Source: a virus
Lineage: Duplodnaviria; Heunggongvirae; Uroviricota; Caudoviricetes
IMG/VR virus record: IMGVR_UViG_2541047908_000011
Span: 1-35,565 of that record
Direction: 5' to 3' (one strand)
DNA: 35,565 bases
In this document: piece after piece, positions 13,262-21,045 of the stretch
How positions within the stretch are numbered: position 1 is the stretch's first letter
Layout of the letters: each line of letters begins with the position of its first letter
Program-made: the position numbers and the translations under genes
The notes under the pieces: model-generated
What the model was told of the DNA's origin: nothing
The model's database searches: none
What the model saw: only the letters and a program-made list of their open reading frames with translations

Positions 13262-15019
13262 TTAAAGCGAGCGGATGCCCACGCTGACCAGATGTTCAGA
13301 CAGATCCAGCTCCGGTTCACCACCATTGACCAGCATCCGGCTCATTGCTGTAAACATCGCAACAGGGCCGTCGATTTTGGCTTCCGGCGTGGATTTATTC
13401 GGGAAGATATTGTCGTTTTTGTCCGGTTTTACCGTAACGTTAGACATCATCCAGTTCATGACCGGATGATTGCTGTGATGGAAACGCCCGGCATAGACCA
13501 GTGATTCCGTTTCCTTCATGGCCTCTGACAGATTGCGAACCGTCTGCGGAACCTCCACCAGCGGTATCCCTTCTTCAGCCAGTGCCAGGCTGAACTGCAT
13601 CGCGCTCCACGGGTCAAATCCCAGTTCCCTGAGGTTTTCACCACCAATCCATTCCAGTAAGTCACTTTTTATCTGAGCATGATCGATAACATCACCATCC
13701 GTCAGAATCAGCTTATCCATCTCCGCCCACTTCCGGTAAAGTTCTGCCTGCTGCCGCGAGCATCGTTCCAGCCGTCCTTCCGGAAGCCAGAATTTAAAAT
13801 CGGCATGAACATGCCCGTTATCCGTTCGCCAGAGTTTTGCCGCCGCACAGATATCAATCTTATGAGCAAGGTCAACGCCGACCCACATGGGATACGTTTT
13901 CAGCTCATGTCGTGGGGCAATGTATTCGCACTTCTCCCACTTAATCATGTCCATCCAGGCAGACTCTGCTGTTACCCACACATTCATGTGTTTGGTAAAA
14001 AAATTCACCCGCGCAGAGACCTGTTCTTTCGCTTTTTTCGCCAGGCGACGCAGATCATCCCAGCGTTTACAGATGCCCAGGCCGGGATTCGCTTTCTGCC
14101 AGACCGTTTCATCAAACGGATCATCTCCCTCATCGAGGGTGTAAATAATCGCAAAGTAGGAGTCGTCTTTTACCGCGCCCTCCACGTCGCTGTTATAGCC
14201 ACGCAATACCTTGATGGCGTAATCACGCTGCTCGTAACAAATCCCTTCCTTGTTAAACCCTGCCGTGGTGATACCAAATAAAAGGGACTGCAGACGGGCA
14301 CCGGTTGCCGTTTCCAGAACGTCCCACACGTCACGGGTTTTATGTGCATGCAGCTCATCAATAATGGCGCAGTGGATGTTCAGACCATCCAGGTTGTTTG
14401 CATCCGAAGAAAGCGGTTCAAATTTTGATGCGCTCTGCTCCTGGTAAATCGCCAGCTTGTTGAAATCAAACAACCGCCCGAGTGTCGACCGGGCTTTTCT
14501 GACCATATTTTTGGCGTCTTCAAACACGATTCTGGCCTGGTCACGCGTGGTTGCGGCTGAATAAACCTCAGCTCCGCCTTCACCATCTGCCCCCGTCATA
14601 TACAGGCCGATACCCGATGACAGAGTTGATTTTGCGTTTTTACGGGCGACTTCGTTGTACGCCGTCCGGAACCGGCGCACCATCACCGGACGTCCGCTGC
14701 CATCGCTGCGCATGACAACTTCCCCGGTCTCTTCATTGACCAGCGGAATGACAAAACCAAAAATATTAATGAGGATAAATACATGCCAGTCCATCAACTC
14801 AATGGGCTGGCCTGCCAGCGCCCCTTTTACATGAGGCACAAATTTGTAGAAATTCAGGATGTGCTGCGCACGGGGTTCACTGAAATAAATCCCCCGCTCT
14901 TCGCCGTACTTCAGATCATCAAGAAAACGCTGGCAGGCCAGGCGGACAAATTCGCCAGCAACAATTTCTCCTGCAACAACACGTTCGGCGTAGCGGATCC
15001 CGTCAGCCACTTTTGCCAT
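13262..15019 (-). CDS. Terminase large subunit
   Basis: 585-aa ORF adjacent to the small subunit and portal. Assignment by size and synteny. Confidence 0.85.
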
Positions 15020-15501
15020 CAGTCTCTCGCTTTTAAAAGCTCCGCCAGCGGATCAACATCATCCGGTCCGGCGGTATTTACTTTCGCCCGGCTTGCCGGT
15101 GACATACCAAACTCTGCAAGCATTGCCCGGATCCGCTTCCAGGCATCCGCTTTCATTGCCGCCGCGGGGTGCGCCTTAATCAGTACATCACCGCTCTGCG
15201 TTTCCGTGCGGTAGGTATACCCCTCAACATCGAGTGTTTCGCAGTGATGCCGGTATTCGGTGTAGGCTTCCACCAGCAACTCGAGCGCACGCGCATCAAG
15301 CTGAGAAATGATCCCTTCCGCATTCAGCTCTTCCGCCATTCGCCTGAACCAGTACTTCCCCTGAGCCCCTAAATGCTGCGGAATTTTAGGAAGACCTTTT
15401 TCATCCTTTTTAGCGGTTTTTTTGTGGTCTTTAACGGGGCGCTTTGAGGGGTTGCCTCGAATCAAATGCAGGCGTGGCGGGGTTTTCGGAGGTCCTGACA
15501 T
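15019..15501 (-). CDS. Terminase small subunit (P27 family)
   Basis: 160-aa ORF with a basic N-terminus (MSGPPKTPPRLHLIRGNPSKRP), overlapping the start of the large subunit. Confidence 0.8.
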   Translation of the reverse strand: MSGPPKTPPRLHLIRGNPSKRPVKDHKKTAKKDEKGLPKIPQHLGAQGKYWFRRMAEELNAEGIISQLDARALELLVEAYTEYRHHCETLDVEGYTYRTETQSGDVLIKAHPAAAMKADAWKRIRAMLAEFGMSPASRAKVNTAGPDDVDPLAELLKARD

Positions 15502-15594
15502 AATCGGTCTTACCTATCAATCGTTTGTTCACATTTCCAAAAAAAAGTTTTCGAACCTGCGGCGATGTGAGGAAGGGTCAGGCGGCGGTACTGA

Positions 15595-15630
15595 GCAGCC
15601 AGGGCGGCAGAGATTTGCCCCGCCCCTCCC
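15595..15630. other. Candidate cos / packaging site region
   Basis: GC-rich motif GGGCGGCAGAGAT (about 15602-15614) resembles the lambda cohesive-end sequence GGGCGGCGACCT as I remember it, with a GGGCGG...CCGCCC inverted repeat. Lies between HNH and terminase small subunit. Confidence 0.35.
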
Positions 15631-15649
15631 CTACAGATGAGAACTGTTA

Positions 15650-16000
15650 TCAATTGATGCGTTCGCGCGCTGTTTTTGCTTTATGGCAGGGCCAGCACAG
15701 ACTCTGCAGGTTACTGTCTGCATCCGTGCCACCATGAGCTTTCGGAATGATGTGGTCCACAGTTCTGGCTTCAACAGCTCTCCCATTGCGCAGGCAGTTC
15801 TGACACAGATGATTATCACGCTTCAGTATGCGCGCACGTATGGCATCCCATTTCGAGCCATAGCCACGCTGGTGGCGGCTCAGTCCGCGCTGGTGCTGCA
15901 CCCAGCCTTCACCCCAATGTTTATCGCAGTAGCCCGAACTGTCTGTTGTTGTGCCTGCGCAGCCTCGCTTACGACATGCGCGGGGGATTCGTGATGGCAT
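15650..16000 (-). CDS. HNH endonuclease (terminase-associated)
   Basis: 116-aa ORF with Cys pairs and HIIPKAHGGTDADSNLQSLCWPCH (HNH motif). Immediately upstream of the terminase genes, as in HK97-like cos phages. Confidence 0.85.
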   Translation of the reverse strand: MPSRIPRACRKRGCAGTTTDSSGYCDKHWGEGWVQHQRGLSRHQRGYGSKWDAIRARILKRDNHLCQNCLRNGRAVEARTVDHIIPKAHGGTDADSNLQSLCWPCHKAKTARERIN

Positions 16001-16421
16001 GGAACTTCGTTCTCCAGCGATTAAAACGTTTCTCTCTCGGGGATAACATGTATTGCATTCAGTCCCGCCGCCACAGCGTGCTGATTATGTTCATTGACAA
16101 GCTGCATTGTTTCATCAAGCAATTCACGACAGCGATTTGCATTCGTTTCGATGCTCAGCACCAGTGAATGACCCCCACACAACCGCCCATCCAATAAAAA
16201 TGGAGAGTCAGCAGAAACAATTTCCGATTTTATGGGGTCAGTTCAACGGAAGGGCTGCTGTAATGCTGTGGACAATACTCCTTTTGTCGCTTACTGGTTG
16301 AATATCCTGGTTTTTATGCGCTTTATCCATTGTTAAAATACAACCTCAGCCCTCCAGTGATCGGACACTGTGTGAACAATGAATAAGAGCCTTGGCTGAC
16401 GGCTCCGCAAAAGGAATGACA

Positions 16422-16631
16422 ATGACAAGCTTTAATATAAATTTAAATGTAACAACAAAGGTTGAAACCATTTCTGACGTAGCTTTAGAAATTTCCCGTT
16501 TAAAAGTTACGATTGGAATATTATTGGCTAAACTACCTCCAGAACAGCGTGATTCATTCATTGCAGATCTAAAAGGCGTCGGGCTTAATGAAGAGGCCAG
16601 CTTATATAGTAATTTCAACCCAAAGATATAA
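16422..16631 (+). CDS. Small moron protein, unknown function (69 aa)
   Basis: Plus-strand ORF in an AT-rich island, opposite to all neighbouring phage genes. AAGGA RBS 7 nt before ATG 16422; own terminator downstream. Confidence 0.5.
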   Translation: MTSFNINLNVTTKVETISDVALEISRLKVTIGILLAKLPPEQRDSFIADLKGVGLNEEASLYSNFNPKI

Positions 16632-16655
16632 TCTGAATCCATCGTTTACAGGAGC

Positions 16656-16685
16656 GGGGAGGGAGCAACCTCCCCCCTTTTCTTT
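16656..16685 (+). terminator. Rho-independent terminator of the moron gene
   Basis: GGGGAGG-gagcaa-CCTCCCC followed by CTTTTCTTT on the plus strand. Confidence 0.6.
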
Positions 16686-16864
16686 ATCTGGTGTATGTAA
16701 TATTTCCTTTTAAGTAAAACGCTCCCGTATTATCAACTGCGCCCTCAGGTTTTTTATTGAGAATTTTTAATAATTTTGACTTCATAGCAATATTAAAAAT
16801 CTTTGGGAAAAGAAACATATTTCCTCCTGAATAAATATGCGAGGATGAATTGAGTTCACTTTAT

Positions 16865-17050
16865 CTAACCTCGCTGCATACACTGCCGGATGCCATCAAT
16901 CAGTTGGCAGGCCTGAGAAGCAGCGTCAAAAAACTGGCGTGCCTTATCCAGGCTAACGCATCCCGCCAATAAAAAAGGCACCAGTATCGCTACCAGTGCC
17001 CATTTCGCCGCCGTTCGCGGCATTCTGTGTGTCCAGTGTTTTCTGCTCAT
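16865..17050 (-). CDS. Small lipoprotein (lipobox LLAGC) downstream of endolysin; possible o-spanin-like or lysis-associated lipoprotein
   Basis: 61-aa ORF with signal peptide and LLAGC lipobox. AGGTG RBS upstream of ATG 17050. Mature part is short and not Pro-rich, so spanin identity is uncertain. Confidence 0.5.
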   Translation of the reverse strand: MSRKHWTHRMPRTAAKWALVAILVPFLLAGCVSLDKARQFFDAASQACQLIDGIRQCMQRG

Positions 17051-17064
17051 AACACACCTGGTTA

Positions 17065-17448
17065 TCAGCGTTTCAACTGAAAGTGAGGTCCGTCTTTCAG
17101 TGTTTTCCAGTCCCCGCCCCATTCGATGGCAGTTCCCAGCTCTGCGGCAGCCTGCTTAAATGCCTGCGCGATTTTCTCGTACAGAGGCCAGTCCCATGAC
17201 ACCTGGCTGCCAATGTAGGCCACAACATCCACTGCATCACCGGTCAGGTGGCGGCTGTTCATGGTCTGGCTTTTCCCTTCCGCGACCAGCTGTTTCTGGC
17301 GATACTTACTGCGCAGGCCTTCCGTAATACCGAAATCAACCTCCGTCAGCTCCAGCGCACGGCGAGCTACAGCAACCAGCTGTGGTTTAACGCCCTCCAG
17401 ATTCTTTTCGCTGCGACGACTAAATCTGAATTTACCCGACATATTCAC
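17065..17448 (-). CDS. Endolysin, peptidase M15 family (L-alanyl-D-glutamate peptidase-like)
   Basis: 127-aa ORF with His/Asp metal-ligand pattern (SRHLTGDAVDV ... H near C-terminus) typical of small M15 phage endolysins. Sits in the lysis cassette. Confidence 0.75.
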   Translation of the reverse strand: MNMSGKFRFSRRSEKNLEGVKPQLVAVARRALELTEVDFGITEGLRSKYRQKQLVAEGKSQTMNSRHLTGDAVDVVAYIGSQVSWDWPLYEKIAQAFKQAAAELGTAIEWGGDWKTLKDGPHFQLKR

Positions 17449-17449
17449 C

Positions 17450-17719
17450 TCAACAATGGAAAATTTTTGTGACGTTCCCGCGCGCGCGTATCACCAGCAC
17501 GCAGAACAGCAGATTAAAAAACACTTCCAGCCAGCCCGTTGCTAACGGGCGACCACACAGATAGCTGAGGGGCGCAAAGGCATACAACAGCATCAGCAGC
17601 CAGGCCAGCCATGACATCAATGGTTTGTGTCTGGAGTCACGACGACGATAAAAAAAGAGCGTCAGCACGATAACCGTGCATAACGCCACATTCAGCAATC
17701 CGGGAAGGTTACTTAACAT
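17450..17719 (-). CDS. Small three-TM membrane protein in the lysis cassette (possible second holin / antiholin)
   Basis: Start at MLSNLPGLLNV...; three hydrophobic segments. Located between holin and endolysin, with overlapping or adjacent coding boundaries. Confidence 0.45.
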   Translation of the reverse strand: MLSNLPGLLNVALCTVIVLTLFFYRRRDSRHKPLMSWLAWLLMLLYAFAPLSYLCGRPLATGWLEVFFNLLFCVLVIRARGNVTKIFHC

Positions 17720-18150: not shown

Positions 18151-18392
18151 CACCCCGTCAAAGACACCCGCAGATGCCTTTTGTGTGGTGTTATCTGATG
18201 CGATGTACGCCGGACGTGGCGCGGATATGAAAAAGGCCCGCCGTAGCGAGCCATAAAGAAACAAAATTCTGAATAAAAAAACCGCCTAGTACGGCGGATA
18301 AAATGATCAAAAGAACCCGTTATTCGTTATAATAAATAAAAAACCATCAACATGGCGACTCGACTCAAGAAACGAATTTACTAACTTAAATG

Positions 18393-18902
18393 TTATTTGC
18401 GTTTATTGACAGGTAATATAGAATTAGCAGCATCTTTCTCTCTCTCTTGGAACGAGTTATGTCTTTTAACCATATCAGGACCAATGAGACTATAAATTAC
18501 TGTCAACAGTTGCCATAAAGTTAAAAAAACCAAAATGGCATATGACGCGCCCCTAAAAATGTCCTTGTGATCTATAAAAAACGGTATCTGTTTTACTAAT
18601 GGCGCAACAACGCCAATAATTAAAACTGATGCTAAAATAGCAGTAGAATGTACAATTGGTGTAAATAACCTTGTAATCCCACTGCCATTAGATTCACTCG
18701 CTGAACTGCCACCTCTAAATGATTTTTTTAATCGTTCAGGATAGATTATCGCAAACCAAGCTCCCACAACTGCAAAGATAATGGATGCTGTAGTTCGCAG
18801 GGCCTCATAAAGAGGCCACTGGGATGAGAAGGGAACATTCTTCCCAAAATAGGCAGAAAAAATCAGAACGACCATAAGAAAAATTCCACCTAAGATTTTC
18901 AT
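18393..18902 (-). CDS. Cargo gene B: 169-aa integral membrane protein (about four TM helices), unknown function
   Basis: AT-rich ORF. Hydrophobic segments at about residues 5-22, 38-57, 85-106 and 120-141. Its ATG directly abuts the stop of cargo gene A (GGA ATG TAG ATG AAA). Confidence 0.7.
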   Translation of the reverse strand: MKILGGIFLMVVLIFSAYFGKNVPFSSQWPLYEALRTTASIIFAVVGAWFAIIYPERLKKSFRGGSSASESNGSGITRLFTPIVHSTAILASVLIIGVVAPLVKQIPFFIDHKDIFRGASYAILVFLTLWQLLTVIYSLIGPDMVKRHNSFQEREKDAANSILPVNKRK

Positions 18903-19943
18903 CTACATTCCCGCCTCGCGTAATATGAGCTCCCTTTTGCCTACAAGTTCAGAAAGAAGAGATTCCGAGGACACAAACTCGGCGTCCTGTCGCTCCAAAT
19001 TCAAGTGGAATTTGGTTCGTGCTAATGAACGACTGAGCCAATATGTCGTTGGATCTCCTTTAAATACAAAACCATAATCACAAGAGTTTGTATCGCTATG
19101 TTTATTCCAATCATCAATCATCCCCTCGATGTCATCAATATCAACATTCGGAGAAAGTTCATATCTAATTTTTGTTGAGGTATTTGCAGTTTGTGGATGG
19201 CTAATATTCATATTAATCAATAGTTTTTGCCACAGGCTAAACTCGTCAGGTTTTGACACATCAAGTTCAACAACCTTTTCAATTTTAGAAACAATATTAG
19301 CATTCTGCCTAATAACTTCATGTTTACCAGGATTTCTTACTAAACCAGCTACGAACTGTGGATAGTGTTTTTTCTTTGGCAGCACATCATCTGTTGGGTT
19401 AATTTTATAGCCCTTGATAACCACCTCATGCGTGCCATCTTCCTTCTCCACACTTTCCGCCACAACGTGGCTTGATGACTGTTTTAAAAAATGATAGAGA
19501 TAGCATTGCATCGCCTTCTGTCCCGTCAAAGCATGGTTAAACTTGATGCTAGCCACTAAATCCATGGATGGAATAAACCAAAAGTAAGTAGCAAAACCAG
19601 GAATACTTCCCTTCTGGATTGAATTAAGTATTACTGTTGGGTCCGTACCAAATTCTGTATCTTCCTGAACCGATGGAACACTTTGATCTGTAGAAGGAAC
19701 CTCATTCCAGAGCAACAAAACCACATTGTCACCAGCACGTTTCATATCCAGAAGATAAGCAGGTAAAACCTCATCATTTGCTTCATATGTCTTTGTCTGT
19801 TTGAGTTTTTTCCCTTCTGCCCATAAAGCAAGATCTGTGAGCAACTCGTCACAACCACCAAATGCAGGGCTTACAACACCGTAACGGTAGTAACCACATT
19901 TTTGAATTTTATAGAACGTAATCGTTACAGTTTCAGAAACCAT
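18903..19943 (-). CDS. Cargo gene A: 346-aa soluble protein of unknown function, translationally coupled to the membrane partner
   Basis: Long AT-rich ORF with no TM segments, no Walker motif and no phage-structural signature that I can recognise. Occupies the Q-to-holin interval. Confidence 0.7.
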   Translation of the reverse strand: MVSETVTITFYKIQKCGYYRYGVVSPAFGGCDELLTDLALWAEGKKLKQTKTYEANDEVLPAYLLDMKRAGDNVVLLLWNEVPSTDQSVPSVQEDTEFGTDPTVILNSIQKGSIPGFATYFWFIPSMDLVASIKFNHALTGQKAMQCYLYHFLKQSSSHVVAESVEKEDGTHEVVIKGYKINPTDDVLPKKKHYPQFVAGLVRNPGKHEVIRQNANIVSKIEKVVELDVSKPDEFSLWQKLLINMNISHPQTANTSTKIRYELSPNVDIDDIEGMIDDWNKHSDTNSCDYGFVFKGDPTTYWLSRSLARTKFHLNLERQDAEFVSSESLLSELVGKRELILREAGM

Positions 19944-20104
19944 AAACTCTTATCCAAATGAAGTAGGGAAGAGTCTAATTTAATACCAATTCATTTAAAG
20001 TGGTTACTGGTTATTTGATCATATTGATAGTGTACAAACATACAGTATCATATCCACATCCTGCATCAAAGCAGGAATCACCTATTGTTAGATACCATAC
20101 ATAC

Positions 20105-20223: not shown

Positions 20224-21045
20224 CTATCGCGTTACCCTCTTTAACTGCCGCTCCGCCCATGCCTCTTCAATGTCAAACCGAACCACCAACGTATCGTAAA
20301 AGCGTTTCACTGATTTTTTCCACGTATCAAGCGTGATAGCACTCGTCACTTTGCGTATGGCATTAAATGCCTCCGTTGATGGTAGTCTTTCATAGCCACG
20401 ACCACCACAACGCTGGCAGTCTCTGATAACAGGCATACCACGTTTTACCGACTCTTCACGATGAATGGCGACACCACGCCCACGGCAATCCTTACAGGCG
20501 GTGGAAACCTCACCCTTTCCGCCACACTCCGGACACGCAACTTTTACCACCTCCCTGACTTTTTTCCATTCTTCCCAGTAAGACGGATACACACCTTTCG
20601 TACACTTTGCCCATACCGGCGGCTTACCATCCGGATACTGGACCTTGTTTGTAAAAACTATGCTTTCAATAAATTTTTCCCCATAGCAACAAGGGCACTG
20701 CTTTTTACTCGCTGCGCTGCGGGCATAATCCTCAAAAGCGTACGAAGCCATAATGCGCATCACTACCGGTTTTATTTCTGCCGGAAGTTTTCTCAACGCC
20801 GCCACACGATCGCACCGACTGAGTGCATAATCTGCCAGTAATTCTGTTGCCCGCGCCCTGTCATTCATACTGATGCCCATTTTCCCCAGGAACGCAGAAA
20901 AACCCATCTCAGCCCGATTCTGTGTCATGCCCTGCGCGGCCATCACATCAGTGATACTCAGCGCATCTTTTGACGTTGAGGCCGATGCATCGGTCAGGCC
21001 AGGGGATTTTGGGGAGTAGTATTTCGGTAAATCTTCCAGTTTCAT
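20224..21045 (-). CDS. Antitermination protein Q-like (zinc-finger containing)
   Basis: 273-aa ORF with Cys clusters (CPECGGKG...CKDCRGRG...CQRCGGRG). Position is canonical: after RusA, immediately upstream of the late promoter and lysis genes. Confidence 0.6.
   Translation of the reverse strand: MKLEDLPKYYSPKSPGLTDASASTSKDALSITDVMAAQGMTQNRAEMGFSAFLGKMGISMNDRARATELLADYALSRCDRVAALRKLPAEIKPVVMRIMASYAFEDYARSAASKKQCPCCYGEKFIESIVFTNKVQYPDGKPPVWAKCTKGVYPSYWEEWKKVREVVKVACPECGGKGEVSTACKDCRGRGVAIHREESVKRGMPVIRDCQRCGGRGYERLPSTEAFNAIRKVTSAITLDTWKKSVKRFYDTLVVRFDIEEAWAERQLKRVTR

Follow-up and report, generated by a model that had tools for sequence, protein, structure and literature searches.

A reverse-oriented moron behind a conserved, putatively structured promoter-leader in Enterobacterales prophages

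The HK97-like Escherichia coli prophage represented by IMG/VR virus record IMGVR_UViG_2541047908_000011 (35,565 nucleotides, analysed along its whole length and referred to here as the window) carries a 69-aa open reading frame (ORF) at positions 16422–16631 of the plus strand, opposite to the late operon. We think it likely that this ORF belongs to a reverse moron, a self-contained unit inserted backwards in the late operon, equipped with a conserved promoter-leader and expressed in the lysogen. When the loci were aligned, the approximately 150 nt ahead of the start codon proved much more conserved than the coding part; in the window, the stretch 16331–16421 is better conserved than the ORF. 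The features of the cassette are as follows.

16269–16873, no strand: moron block, a 605-bp insertion between lysis and packaging genes, from BLAST against E. coli STEC316
16291–16310, plus strand: degraded copy of the conserved upstream block, TTACTGGTTGAATATCCTGG, from alignment
16331–16339, plus strand: putative extended −10, TGtTAAAAT (hexamer 16334–16339), from family conservation
16346–16421, plus strand: predicted structured 5′ leader RNA, from pattern match and covariance model
16346–16351, plus strand: UCAGCC at the predicted +1
16355–16370, plus strand: P2 hairpin
16387–16405, plus strand: P3 hairpin, with a GGCUGA loop at 16394–16399
16422–16631, plus strand: 69-aa Srb-like small helical protein, phrog_6806, homologue of HK022 gp23
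16656–16685, plus strand: intrinsic terminator of the cassette, stem GGGGAGGGAGCAACCTCCCC then CCTTTTCTTT

In order to retrieve the leader, a search pattern was used that consists of TCAGCCCNNCNNTGNTNGNNNNNTG, a gap of 18–28 nt, GGCTGA, a gap of 2–6 nt and CTC. It matched the window once, at 16346–16405, compared with an expectation of 0 from shuffled sequences. A covariance model (R1) of 65 leaders, from whose building the window cassette was excluded, gave a single, full-length match in the window at 16346–16424 (44.8 bits, E = 3.9e-9). The same model also found the copies in HK97, ES18, NC101, Photorhabdus and Xenorhabdus, and gave no match in the sister prophage of E. coli STEC316, in an Erwiniaceae locus or in phi80. 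Rfam release 15 gave no match at E ≤ 1 for window positions 15500–17500 and none at E ≤ 0.1 for five canonical loci.

The P2 hairpin is paired in 96.7% of cases, with double changes at four pairs, and compensated forms occur across genera (CGUCAGUG/CACUGGCG, CGUCCAUG/CAUGGGCG, CGCCUGCG/CGCAGGCG and CAUCAGUG/CACUGAUG). P3 has a conserved GAGG/CCUC core whose outer pairs covary; in the NC101 variant, which was found via P2 alone, the P3 stem is wholly replaced by AUGGGG/CCCCAU and is fully compensated. Cells with G.U outnumber those with A.C by 81:3 in P2 and by 51:11 in P3, whereas the upstream hairpins have no such bias, indicating that the structure belongs to the cargo-strand RNA and neither to the DNA nor to the late transcript. 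A minus-strand small RNA was ruled out by the same bias. We conclude that the leader is computationally well supported as an RNA structure of the cargo strand. Leaders from Photorhabdus and Xenorhabdus have no P2 but keep UCAGCC and P3 with its loop, so P2 appears to be dispensable. A leader peptide initiated at an AUG inside P3 was also considered and rejected: the AUG is not conserved (UUG in the window, ACG in others) and abuts GGAGG.

A further pairing, P1, can be drawn between the 5′-terminal UCAGCC and the GGCUGA of the P3 loop, which are exact complements. Both 6-mers are invariant, including in copies retrieved via the protein, with P2-only BLAST or with the covariance model. The sole variant seen, UCAGUC in the second copy in locus L021, keeps the pairing with GGCUGA as G.U. 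In nested folding, P1 + P2 and P2 + P3 are mutually exclusive and differ by 0.6–2.7 kcal/mol in five leaders; in the window, only 1–2 nt lie between GGCUGA and the 3′ arm of P3, so that P1 and P3 cannot coexist. We tentatively propose, giving it somewhat less than an even chance, that the promoter-leader is an undescribed two-state cis-regulatory RNA of Enterobacterales prophages that marks a portable small-protein cassette antisense to the late operon.

The leader pattern was found in at least 120 IMG/VR stretches, and 132 matches were parsed, from 120 such stretches, 10 loci fetched earlier and the window. In the parsed matches a start codon follows 9–21 nt after the element, usually with an AAGGA-like Shine-Dalgarno (SD) sequence before it. 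The ORFs behind the leader (its cargo) fall into at least 21 clusters unrelated by BLAST, which include the Srb-like family (phrog_6806), small helical families (phrog_21164, phrog_10490 and phrog_35718), a beta-rich 65-aa family (phrog_36400), DUF1883, an aspartyl-protease-like 154-aa protein, a DUF6602/NucC-like PD-(D/E)xK nuclease (locus L053, 3910–4470; PADLOC E = 7e-27), a CxxCxxCC protein and a zinc ribbon. The nuclease is the only cargo with a defence-library match among the matches listed. Eight unrelated cargo families stand behind one identical left flank. When the strand of the flanking genes was scored over 3 kb on each side of 131 leader cassettes, both flanks were coding on the opposite strand in 93. 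In a further 36, one of the two sides was mixed or gave no information. Of the remaining two, one had its right flank on the cassette strand and one was uninformative to left and right; in none did both flanks have the same sense as the cassette. These data show that the predicted promoter-leader is a portable module that stands ahead of unrelated cargo genes, antisense to the genes around it. Two leader cassettes with different cargo were seen in single phage genomes at loci L018, L021, L067 and L151.

In a one-genome-per-species collection, a pattern independent of P2 found the leader in 57 stretches; 53 were from Enterobacterales and the other four approximate the chance expectation. The genera concerned are Pantoea, Erwinia, Pectobacterium, Enterobacter, Citrobacter, Kluyvera, Xenorhabdus, Photorhabdus and others. 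Within E. coli, the consensus leader is present in 228 of 5426 genomes, at up to six places per genome, and nearly all of these places, among the matches listed, have no annotated feature beneath them. Deposited phages with the leader include HK97, HK022, ES18, HK633, mEp213, mEp043, SPN3UB and Oslo. It precedes gp23 in HK97, annotated as ‘reverse moron product’, and gp25 in ES18, annotated as ‘possible moron’; in the records inspected, the sole annotated piece of the conserved region is a late-strand ‘putative terminator’. No description of the leader strings or of the protein accessions was found in the searchable literature; Juhala et al. 2000 lay outside that reach, and an earlier mention is possible.

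The region preceding the leader was examined in 118 unique upstream regions of the family, with the T of TCAGCC taken as +1 (T16346 in the window). Conserved positions are A−11 (99%), T−7 (92%), T−12 (91%) and G−14 (86%). To judge by motif and spacing, TAnnnT at −12 to −7 looks like a sigma-70 −10 hexamer placed at its canonical distance, and RNA should therefore start at UCAGCC or no more than 2 bases from it. The initial annotation had suggested that AT-rich DNA at 16300–16420 might carry the promoter of the ORF. Family conservation points to a putative promoter there, and the region proves to be more than AT-rich DNA, as it includes the conserved, predicted structured 5′ leader. Further upstream, the conserved block of canonical leaders has an integration host factor (IHF)-like core, TATCAGGnTGTTR, and 54 of 92 leaders match WATCARNNNNTTR, which we take to be the IHF consensus core, at −43 to −31. 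Canonical copies open with an A-run and a hairpin that together read as an intrinsic terminator on the late strand, immediately ahead of the start codon of the late gene that follows. Because the IHF-like core and the minus-strand terminator hairpin are absent, the window leader is considered a divergent copy. Two other assignments were tried in this region and discarded, namely a LexA box for TACTG..CAG, in which the spacing is CTG-N9-CAG and not N10, and a sigma-54 promoter, for which the GG-to-GC spacing is 9 and not 10 and the GC is not conserved.

The insertion was delimited by comparison with the sister prophage in STEC316, which has the same TerL/TerS/HNH and M15/holin backbone and lacks the island. 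BLAST of the window against this prophage gave homology at 15901–16233, 16246–16268, 16874–17052 and 17065–17500, with nothing between. As the blocks stop at 16268 and resume at 16874, the 605 bp at 16269–16873 constitute an insertion. At the stop codon of a 61-aa lipoprotein gene it takes the place of 9 nt, and the final two codons and stop of this gene are supplied by the inserted DNA. The GC content of the insertion is 0.374, compared with 0.52 and 0.55 in its flanks; in the GC profile, values of 0.34–0.41 across 16300–16900 contrast with 0.50–0.58 on both sides. The AT-rich island reported in the initial annotation is therefore real, and its true extent is 16269–16873.

Within this island, the ORF starts with an ATG at 16422, 6 nt after a ribosome-binding site, AAGGA, at 16411–16415. 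A mechanical ORF list had used a TTG at 16392, giving a longer version (16392–16631). The Prokaryotic Genome Annotation Pipeline (PGAP) calls exactly 16422–16631 in the identical prophage of E. coli KKo009 (WP_000200355.1, hypothetical protein), in agreement with the 69-aa ORF and ribosome-binding site originally proposed. The strong terminator noted at the same time was also recovered: on the plus strand, a stem of 7 pairs (6 of them G-C) at 16656–16675 is followed by CCTTTTCTTT, whereas on the minus strand the same hairpin has no T-run behind it. In a map of non-overlapped ORFs of at least 60 aa, the 69-aa ORF is the sole plus-strand gene from position 1 to ~27000, consistent with its described orientation against all neighbouring late genes.

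A moron, in the sense of Juhala et al. 2000 as summarised in PMC3594210, is additional DNA that separates late genes adjacent in related phages, differs from them in GC content, has its own promoter and terminator and is expressed from the prophage. Extra DNA relative to the sister prophage, deviant GC content, an own terminator, a conserved promoter-like −10 element and the opposite orientation together sustain the earlier moron interpretation of the window ORF. At ≥95% identity, the 700 bp surrounding the ORF are present in 18 of the 5426 complete E. coli genomes, always on the chromosome. In E. coli WY517-2, the cassette block sits in another prophage backbone, beside genes for an LT-II-like enterotoxin and EplBA. 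Its occurrence in two prophage backbones is the behaviour expected of a moron (PMC3594210). The WY517-2 locus (L002, 6482–10646) encodes LT-II-like enterotoxin A/B and the EplBA subtilase-family AB5 toxin, with several pseudogenes nearby.

For the 69-aa protein, a word-indexed search of 5.8 billion proteins returned two clusters only, and an exhaustive HMMER scan of 1.84 billion representatives (50% identity clustering) returned eight at E ≤ 0.001. A profile search found 62 clusters (90% clustering) of 54–107 aa, mostly 66–76 aa; every one derives from Enterobacterales or from unnamed metagenome contigs, is labelled ‘hypothetical’ and lacks a Pfam domain. K30, G34 and F67 are invariant in this family, and relatives at 30–40% identity retain both the length and the invariant residues. 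The window ORF matches phrog_6806 (function unknown) with E = 2.8e-31 over residues 3–71; HK022 gp23 matches it independently (E = 3.9e-8) and, with 37% identity to the window ORF over 43 aa by blastp, is a remote member. On this homology, the window ORF is a new member of the HK022 gp23-type reverse morons, an element type already known. An AlphaFold2 model of the protein has three helices (predicted local distance difference test, 87.9), and the protein is predicted to be soluble, with no transmembrane or hydrophobic span. Searches of the ORF against Pfam and PADLOC 2.0 gave no match.

In all loci examined, the homologue runs against the late genes around it. Salmonella phage SW-37 has it between tape measure and minor tail genes, HK022 between tail genes I and J, and Cronobacter prophages between tail genes M and L; in Photorhabdus it is beside the tape measure gene. 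In Enterobacter prophages it separates a small terminase (Nu1-type or DUF1441) from lysis genes, in an Erwiniaceae prophage it stands between lysis and terminase, and in Xenorhabdus it lies downstream of Q. The initial annotation had named a lack of conservation in related prophages, together with the absence of a transcript in lysogens, as evidence against the moron; homologues in related prophages were found.

The closest known elements are gp23 of HK022 and gp23 of HK97 (GenBank records NC_002166 and NC_002167, respectively, from Juhala et al. 2000), the former labelled ‘srb protein; moron gene product’. Like the window ORF, both are small ORFs directed against the late operon, with their own terminator and the same promoter-leader. 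The HK022 protein is a homologue of the window protein, whereas that of HK97 is unrelated, and both genes lie between tail genes I and J rather than between lysis and packaging; in addition, the window leader is divergent from theirs in having no minus-strand terminator hairpin. No published function for either gp23 was found in the searchable literature. HK97 also has the gp15 moron, which resembles the window in being extra DNA of deviant GC content between late genes with its own terminator. The gp15 unit also has its own promoter and is expressed from the prophage. It differs in that gp15 is an inner-membrane superinfection-exclusion protein encoded by a unit without the leader, while the window protein lacks membrane segments. 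Lambda bor is a lysogen-expressed gene beside the lysis cassette that runs against the late operon, and its product is an outer-membrane lipoprotein. We know of no sequence or leader similarity between bor and the window ORF.

In phi80, the defence gene taiEcA lies in reverse orientation upstream of the packaging module; the lysogen expresses it, and Q overexpression lowers its expression (PMC11364771). The phi80 taiEcA/atiEcA noncontiguous operon is like the window in that a reverse gene interrupts the Q-dependent late operon of a lambdoid coliphage, and taiEcA is by analogy the best experimental model for how the window cassette may be expected to behave. TaiEcA is ~200 aa long and has no similarity to the window protein, the antidote is proven in phi80 and conjectural in the window, and the covariance model found no copy of the leader in the tai region. 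Other antisense units in phage operons are STnc6030 of Salmonella prophage BTP1, a non-coding antisense RNA that overlaps late genes (PMC7067206), and ith/tha of the Staphylococcus phage 80alpha, an antisense unit in the lysogeny module that follows a ‘noncontiguous operon’ logic (PMC11087260). Both are lysogeny-active or constitutive and tied to the phage life cycle, as the window cassette may be, and neither has any sequence in common with it.

From these comparisons, we envisage that host sigma-70 RNA polymerase would initiate near 16346 in the repressed prophage and produce a transcript of ~340 nt that runs from 16346 to the terminator, which would keep it from entering the lysis genes. 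The leader, paired from its first nucleotides, may stabilise the mRNA. In one fold, P1 would be formed and the CCUC arm of P3 would be free to pair with the SD sequence; in the other, P3 would be formed and the SD sequence free, such that competition between P1 and P3 would gate ribosome access. After induction, Q-modified late transcription from the lysis side would damp the cassette by collision and antisense pairing, as Q-driven damping has been measured for the reverse-oriented taiEcA of phi80. The small cytoplasmic helical protein might act in phage–phage conflict, as a superinfection exclusion or defence factor. This role, to which we give rather less than even odds, is suggested by the analogy with phi80 Tai, by the hypervariable cargo and by the nuclease-type cargo of sister cassettes. 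Since PADLOC has no match for the 69-aa ORF, it is a matter of analogy and not of membership in a known defence family.

Several observations weigh against these proposals. A simple sigma-70 consensus scan upstream of the ORF found no −35/−10 pair, and the −35 region of the window is weak. The upstream block of the window has TATCCTGGTTTTT in place of TATCAGGnTGTTR, so the IHF core is not intact, and the A-run and hairpin of canonical copies, that is the late-strand terminator, are missing. The window leader's own fold is no more stable than that of shuffled sequence (z = +0.56). With respect to the P1/P3 switch, the invariance of P1 is partly imposed by search patterns that require both 6-mers, no double-compensated P1 variant was found among the leaders collected, and pairing of the released CCUC arm with the SD sequence in the P1 fold spans 3–4 bp only. 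The Erwiniaceae homologue has no leader. The copy of the ORF in WY517-2 is frameshifted at its C-terminus. Finally, fold, Pfam and defence-library searches with the 69-aa protein yielded nothing informative on function.

Alternatively, the shared 150–170 bp could be a good promoter and ribosome-binding site that also serves as a homology anchor for the swapping of cargo, with the hairpins being incidental. The eight unrelated cargos behind one left flank and the same leader fit this explanation, high leader identity among cassettes makes recombinational spread plausible, within Enterobacteriaceae the stems are for the most part invariant and not covarying, and the poor fold of the window leader points in the same direction. 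However, the G.U bias and the repeated double compensatory changes in P2 and P3 are unexpected for DNA anchors, and from Enterobacteriaceae to Morganellaceae the core is retained although the linker and P2 differ. We therefore regard this explanation as unlikely. It is also conceivable that the RNA is the effector and the ORF incidental, in which case a prophage antisense or regulatory RNA similar to STnc6030 would target the late transcripts of incoming relatives. The leader is indeed more conserved than any cargo, the whole unit is antisense to the late operon, and there is a precedent for an antisense RNA within late genes that excludes a superinfecting phage (PMC7067206). This is difficult to reconcile with the constant junction of SD sequence and start codon, the latter 14–21 nt after the P3 arm (CCUC), with the conservation of cargo families at the protein level and with a strong terminator that should end the transcript before any annotated late gene; moreover, the cargo sequence is too variable for a common antisense effector. 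We consider an RNA effector quite improbable.

The ORF might, on the other hand, be a decaying, unexpressed and functionless remnant in a mosaic junction. The narrow distribution of the exact cassette (18 of 5426 complete E. coli genomes), the frameshift in WY517-2, the degraded upstream block of the window and a deletion accompanying the insertion that truncates a neighbouring late gene could all be taken in this sense. Yet the ORF is intact in 17 of the 18 E. coli genomes with the cassette, at ≥99% identity, relatives down to 30–40% identity preserve its length and invariant residues, and leader, SD sequence and terminator are intact, making decay very improbable. A locus resembling type I toxin–antitoxin systems, in which a small toxic peptide is encoded by an mRNA with a folded leader under antisense RNA control, would account for a small ORF with a highly structured 5′ untranslated region in a prophage, and canonical copies do have a minus-strand terminator just upstream of the promoter. 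Against it stand the predicted soluble, helical protein with no transmembrane segment and a heterogeneous cargo that includes DUF6602 (NucC-like nuclease), DUF1883 and a protease-like domain. In addition, no conserved minus-strand promoter was seen on reading the consensus, and the window has no minus-strand terminator. Such a locus is scarcely credible here. A reverse moron with a conserved promoter-leader thus continues to be our preferred reading.

The late-strand side of the cassette and the genes around it are listed below.

13262–15019, minus strand: large terminase (TerL), left of the ORF
15019–15501, minus strand: P27-family small terminase (TerS), left of the ORF
15650–16000, minus strand: HNH endonuclease, left of the ORF
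16684–16818, minus strand: 44-aa ORF, MFLFPKIFNIAM..., with GGAGG 4 nt before its ATG, converging on the 69-aa ORF
16686–16873, no strand: AT-rich 3′ part of the 605-bp insertion
16865–17050, minus strand: 61-aa lipoprotein with lipobox LLAGC, right of the ORF
17065–17448, minus strand: M15 endolysin, right of the ORF, with two holins beyond

The AT-rich sequence downstream of the ORF (16700–16860) had been thought to carry insulating elements, a suggestion that did not hold: no conserved or insulating feature was found there, and the sequence is not common to other family members. The 44-aa ORF has near-identical E. coli copies only, and in WY517-2 its frame is kept across a 9-nt deletion. 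By analogy with Ati, it could be a late-expressed antidote. In other phages, a late-strand gene with the N-terminus MTLEQRVxxLE, always of the same family, stands opposite 52 of 117 unique cassettes, whose cargo represents 13 clusters. A 103-aa gene of SW-37 (locus L003, 4204–4515) is a confirmed member. Probable members are ES18 gp24 (locus L137, 1943–2203, late strand, annotated DUF1327) and genes at the equivalent position in NC101 and 2018-06-4CC (L138, 1842–2156 and L139, 1926–2144; DUF1327/YdfR annotation). The recurrence of this gene whatever the cargo suggests a two-gene module in many phages. No trace of the partner family was found in the window, where 16686–16873 is dissimilar to the partner genes beside other cassettes.

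Several further observations concern the neighbourhood of the insertion. An unannotated 57-aa ORF at 16021–16194 (minus strand) is what remains, on the 3′ side, of a late gene for 98 aa (WP_000004120.1 in STEC316), the 5′ end of which was removed by a 142-bp deletion beside the insertion (junction 16233/16234); either the insertion event or a neighbouring event caused this loss. The lipoprotein gene (16865–17050, minus strand) follows the M15 endolysin gene, no Rz-like partner is visible there, and a terminator-like minus-strand hairpin (17001–16976) lies within its signal-peptide codons. STEC316 has its own plus-strand gene ~450 bp away (locus L197, 2943–3212; 89 aa, phrog_36812), flanked by those for the lipoprotein and the endolysin and not preceded by the leader, which indicates that the region hosts different reverse morons. 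A second AT-rich island is present in the window at 18200–19950 (minus strand; GC content of 0.31–0.46 over 18200–19000), with two late-strand hypothetical genes (169 and 346 aa) between a Q-like antiterminator gene (20224–21045) and the holins. The interval between Q and the holins is a common position of forward morons in lambdoid phages.

Taken by itself, the window ORF is one more hypothetical prophage gene, and the region upstream of it matters more. HK97, HK022, ES18 and hundreds of uncultured Enterobacterales phages have one predicted promoter-leader in common, behind which the coding parts are freely swapped. The search pattern and the covariance model provide a handle with which to retrieve small prophage genes that are probably expressed in lysogens. 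If the two-state proposal is correct, the leader would be a searchable flag for lysogeny-expressed conflict genes, as attC flags integron cassettes. The arrangement suggests a general logic in which such genes would be on in the lysogen and off during late expression by means of convergent transcription, experimentally shown so far for single cases such as phi80 Tai.

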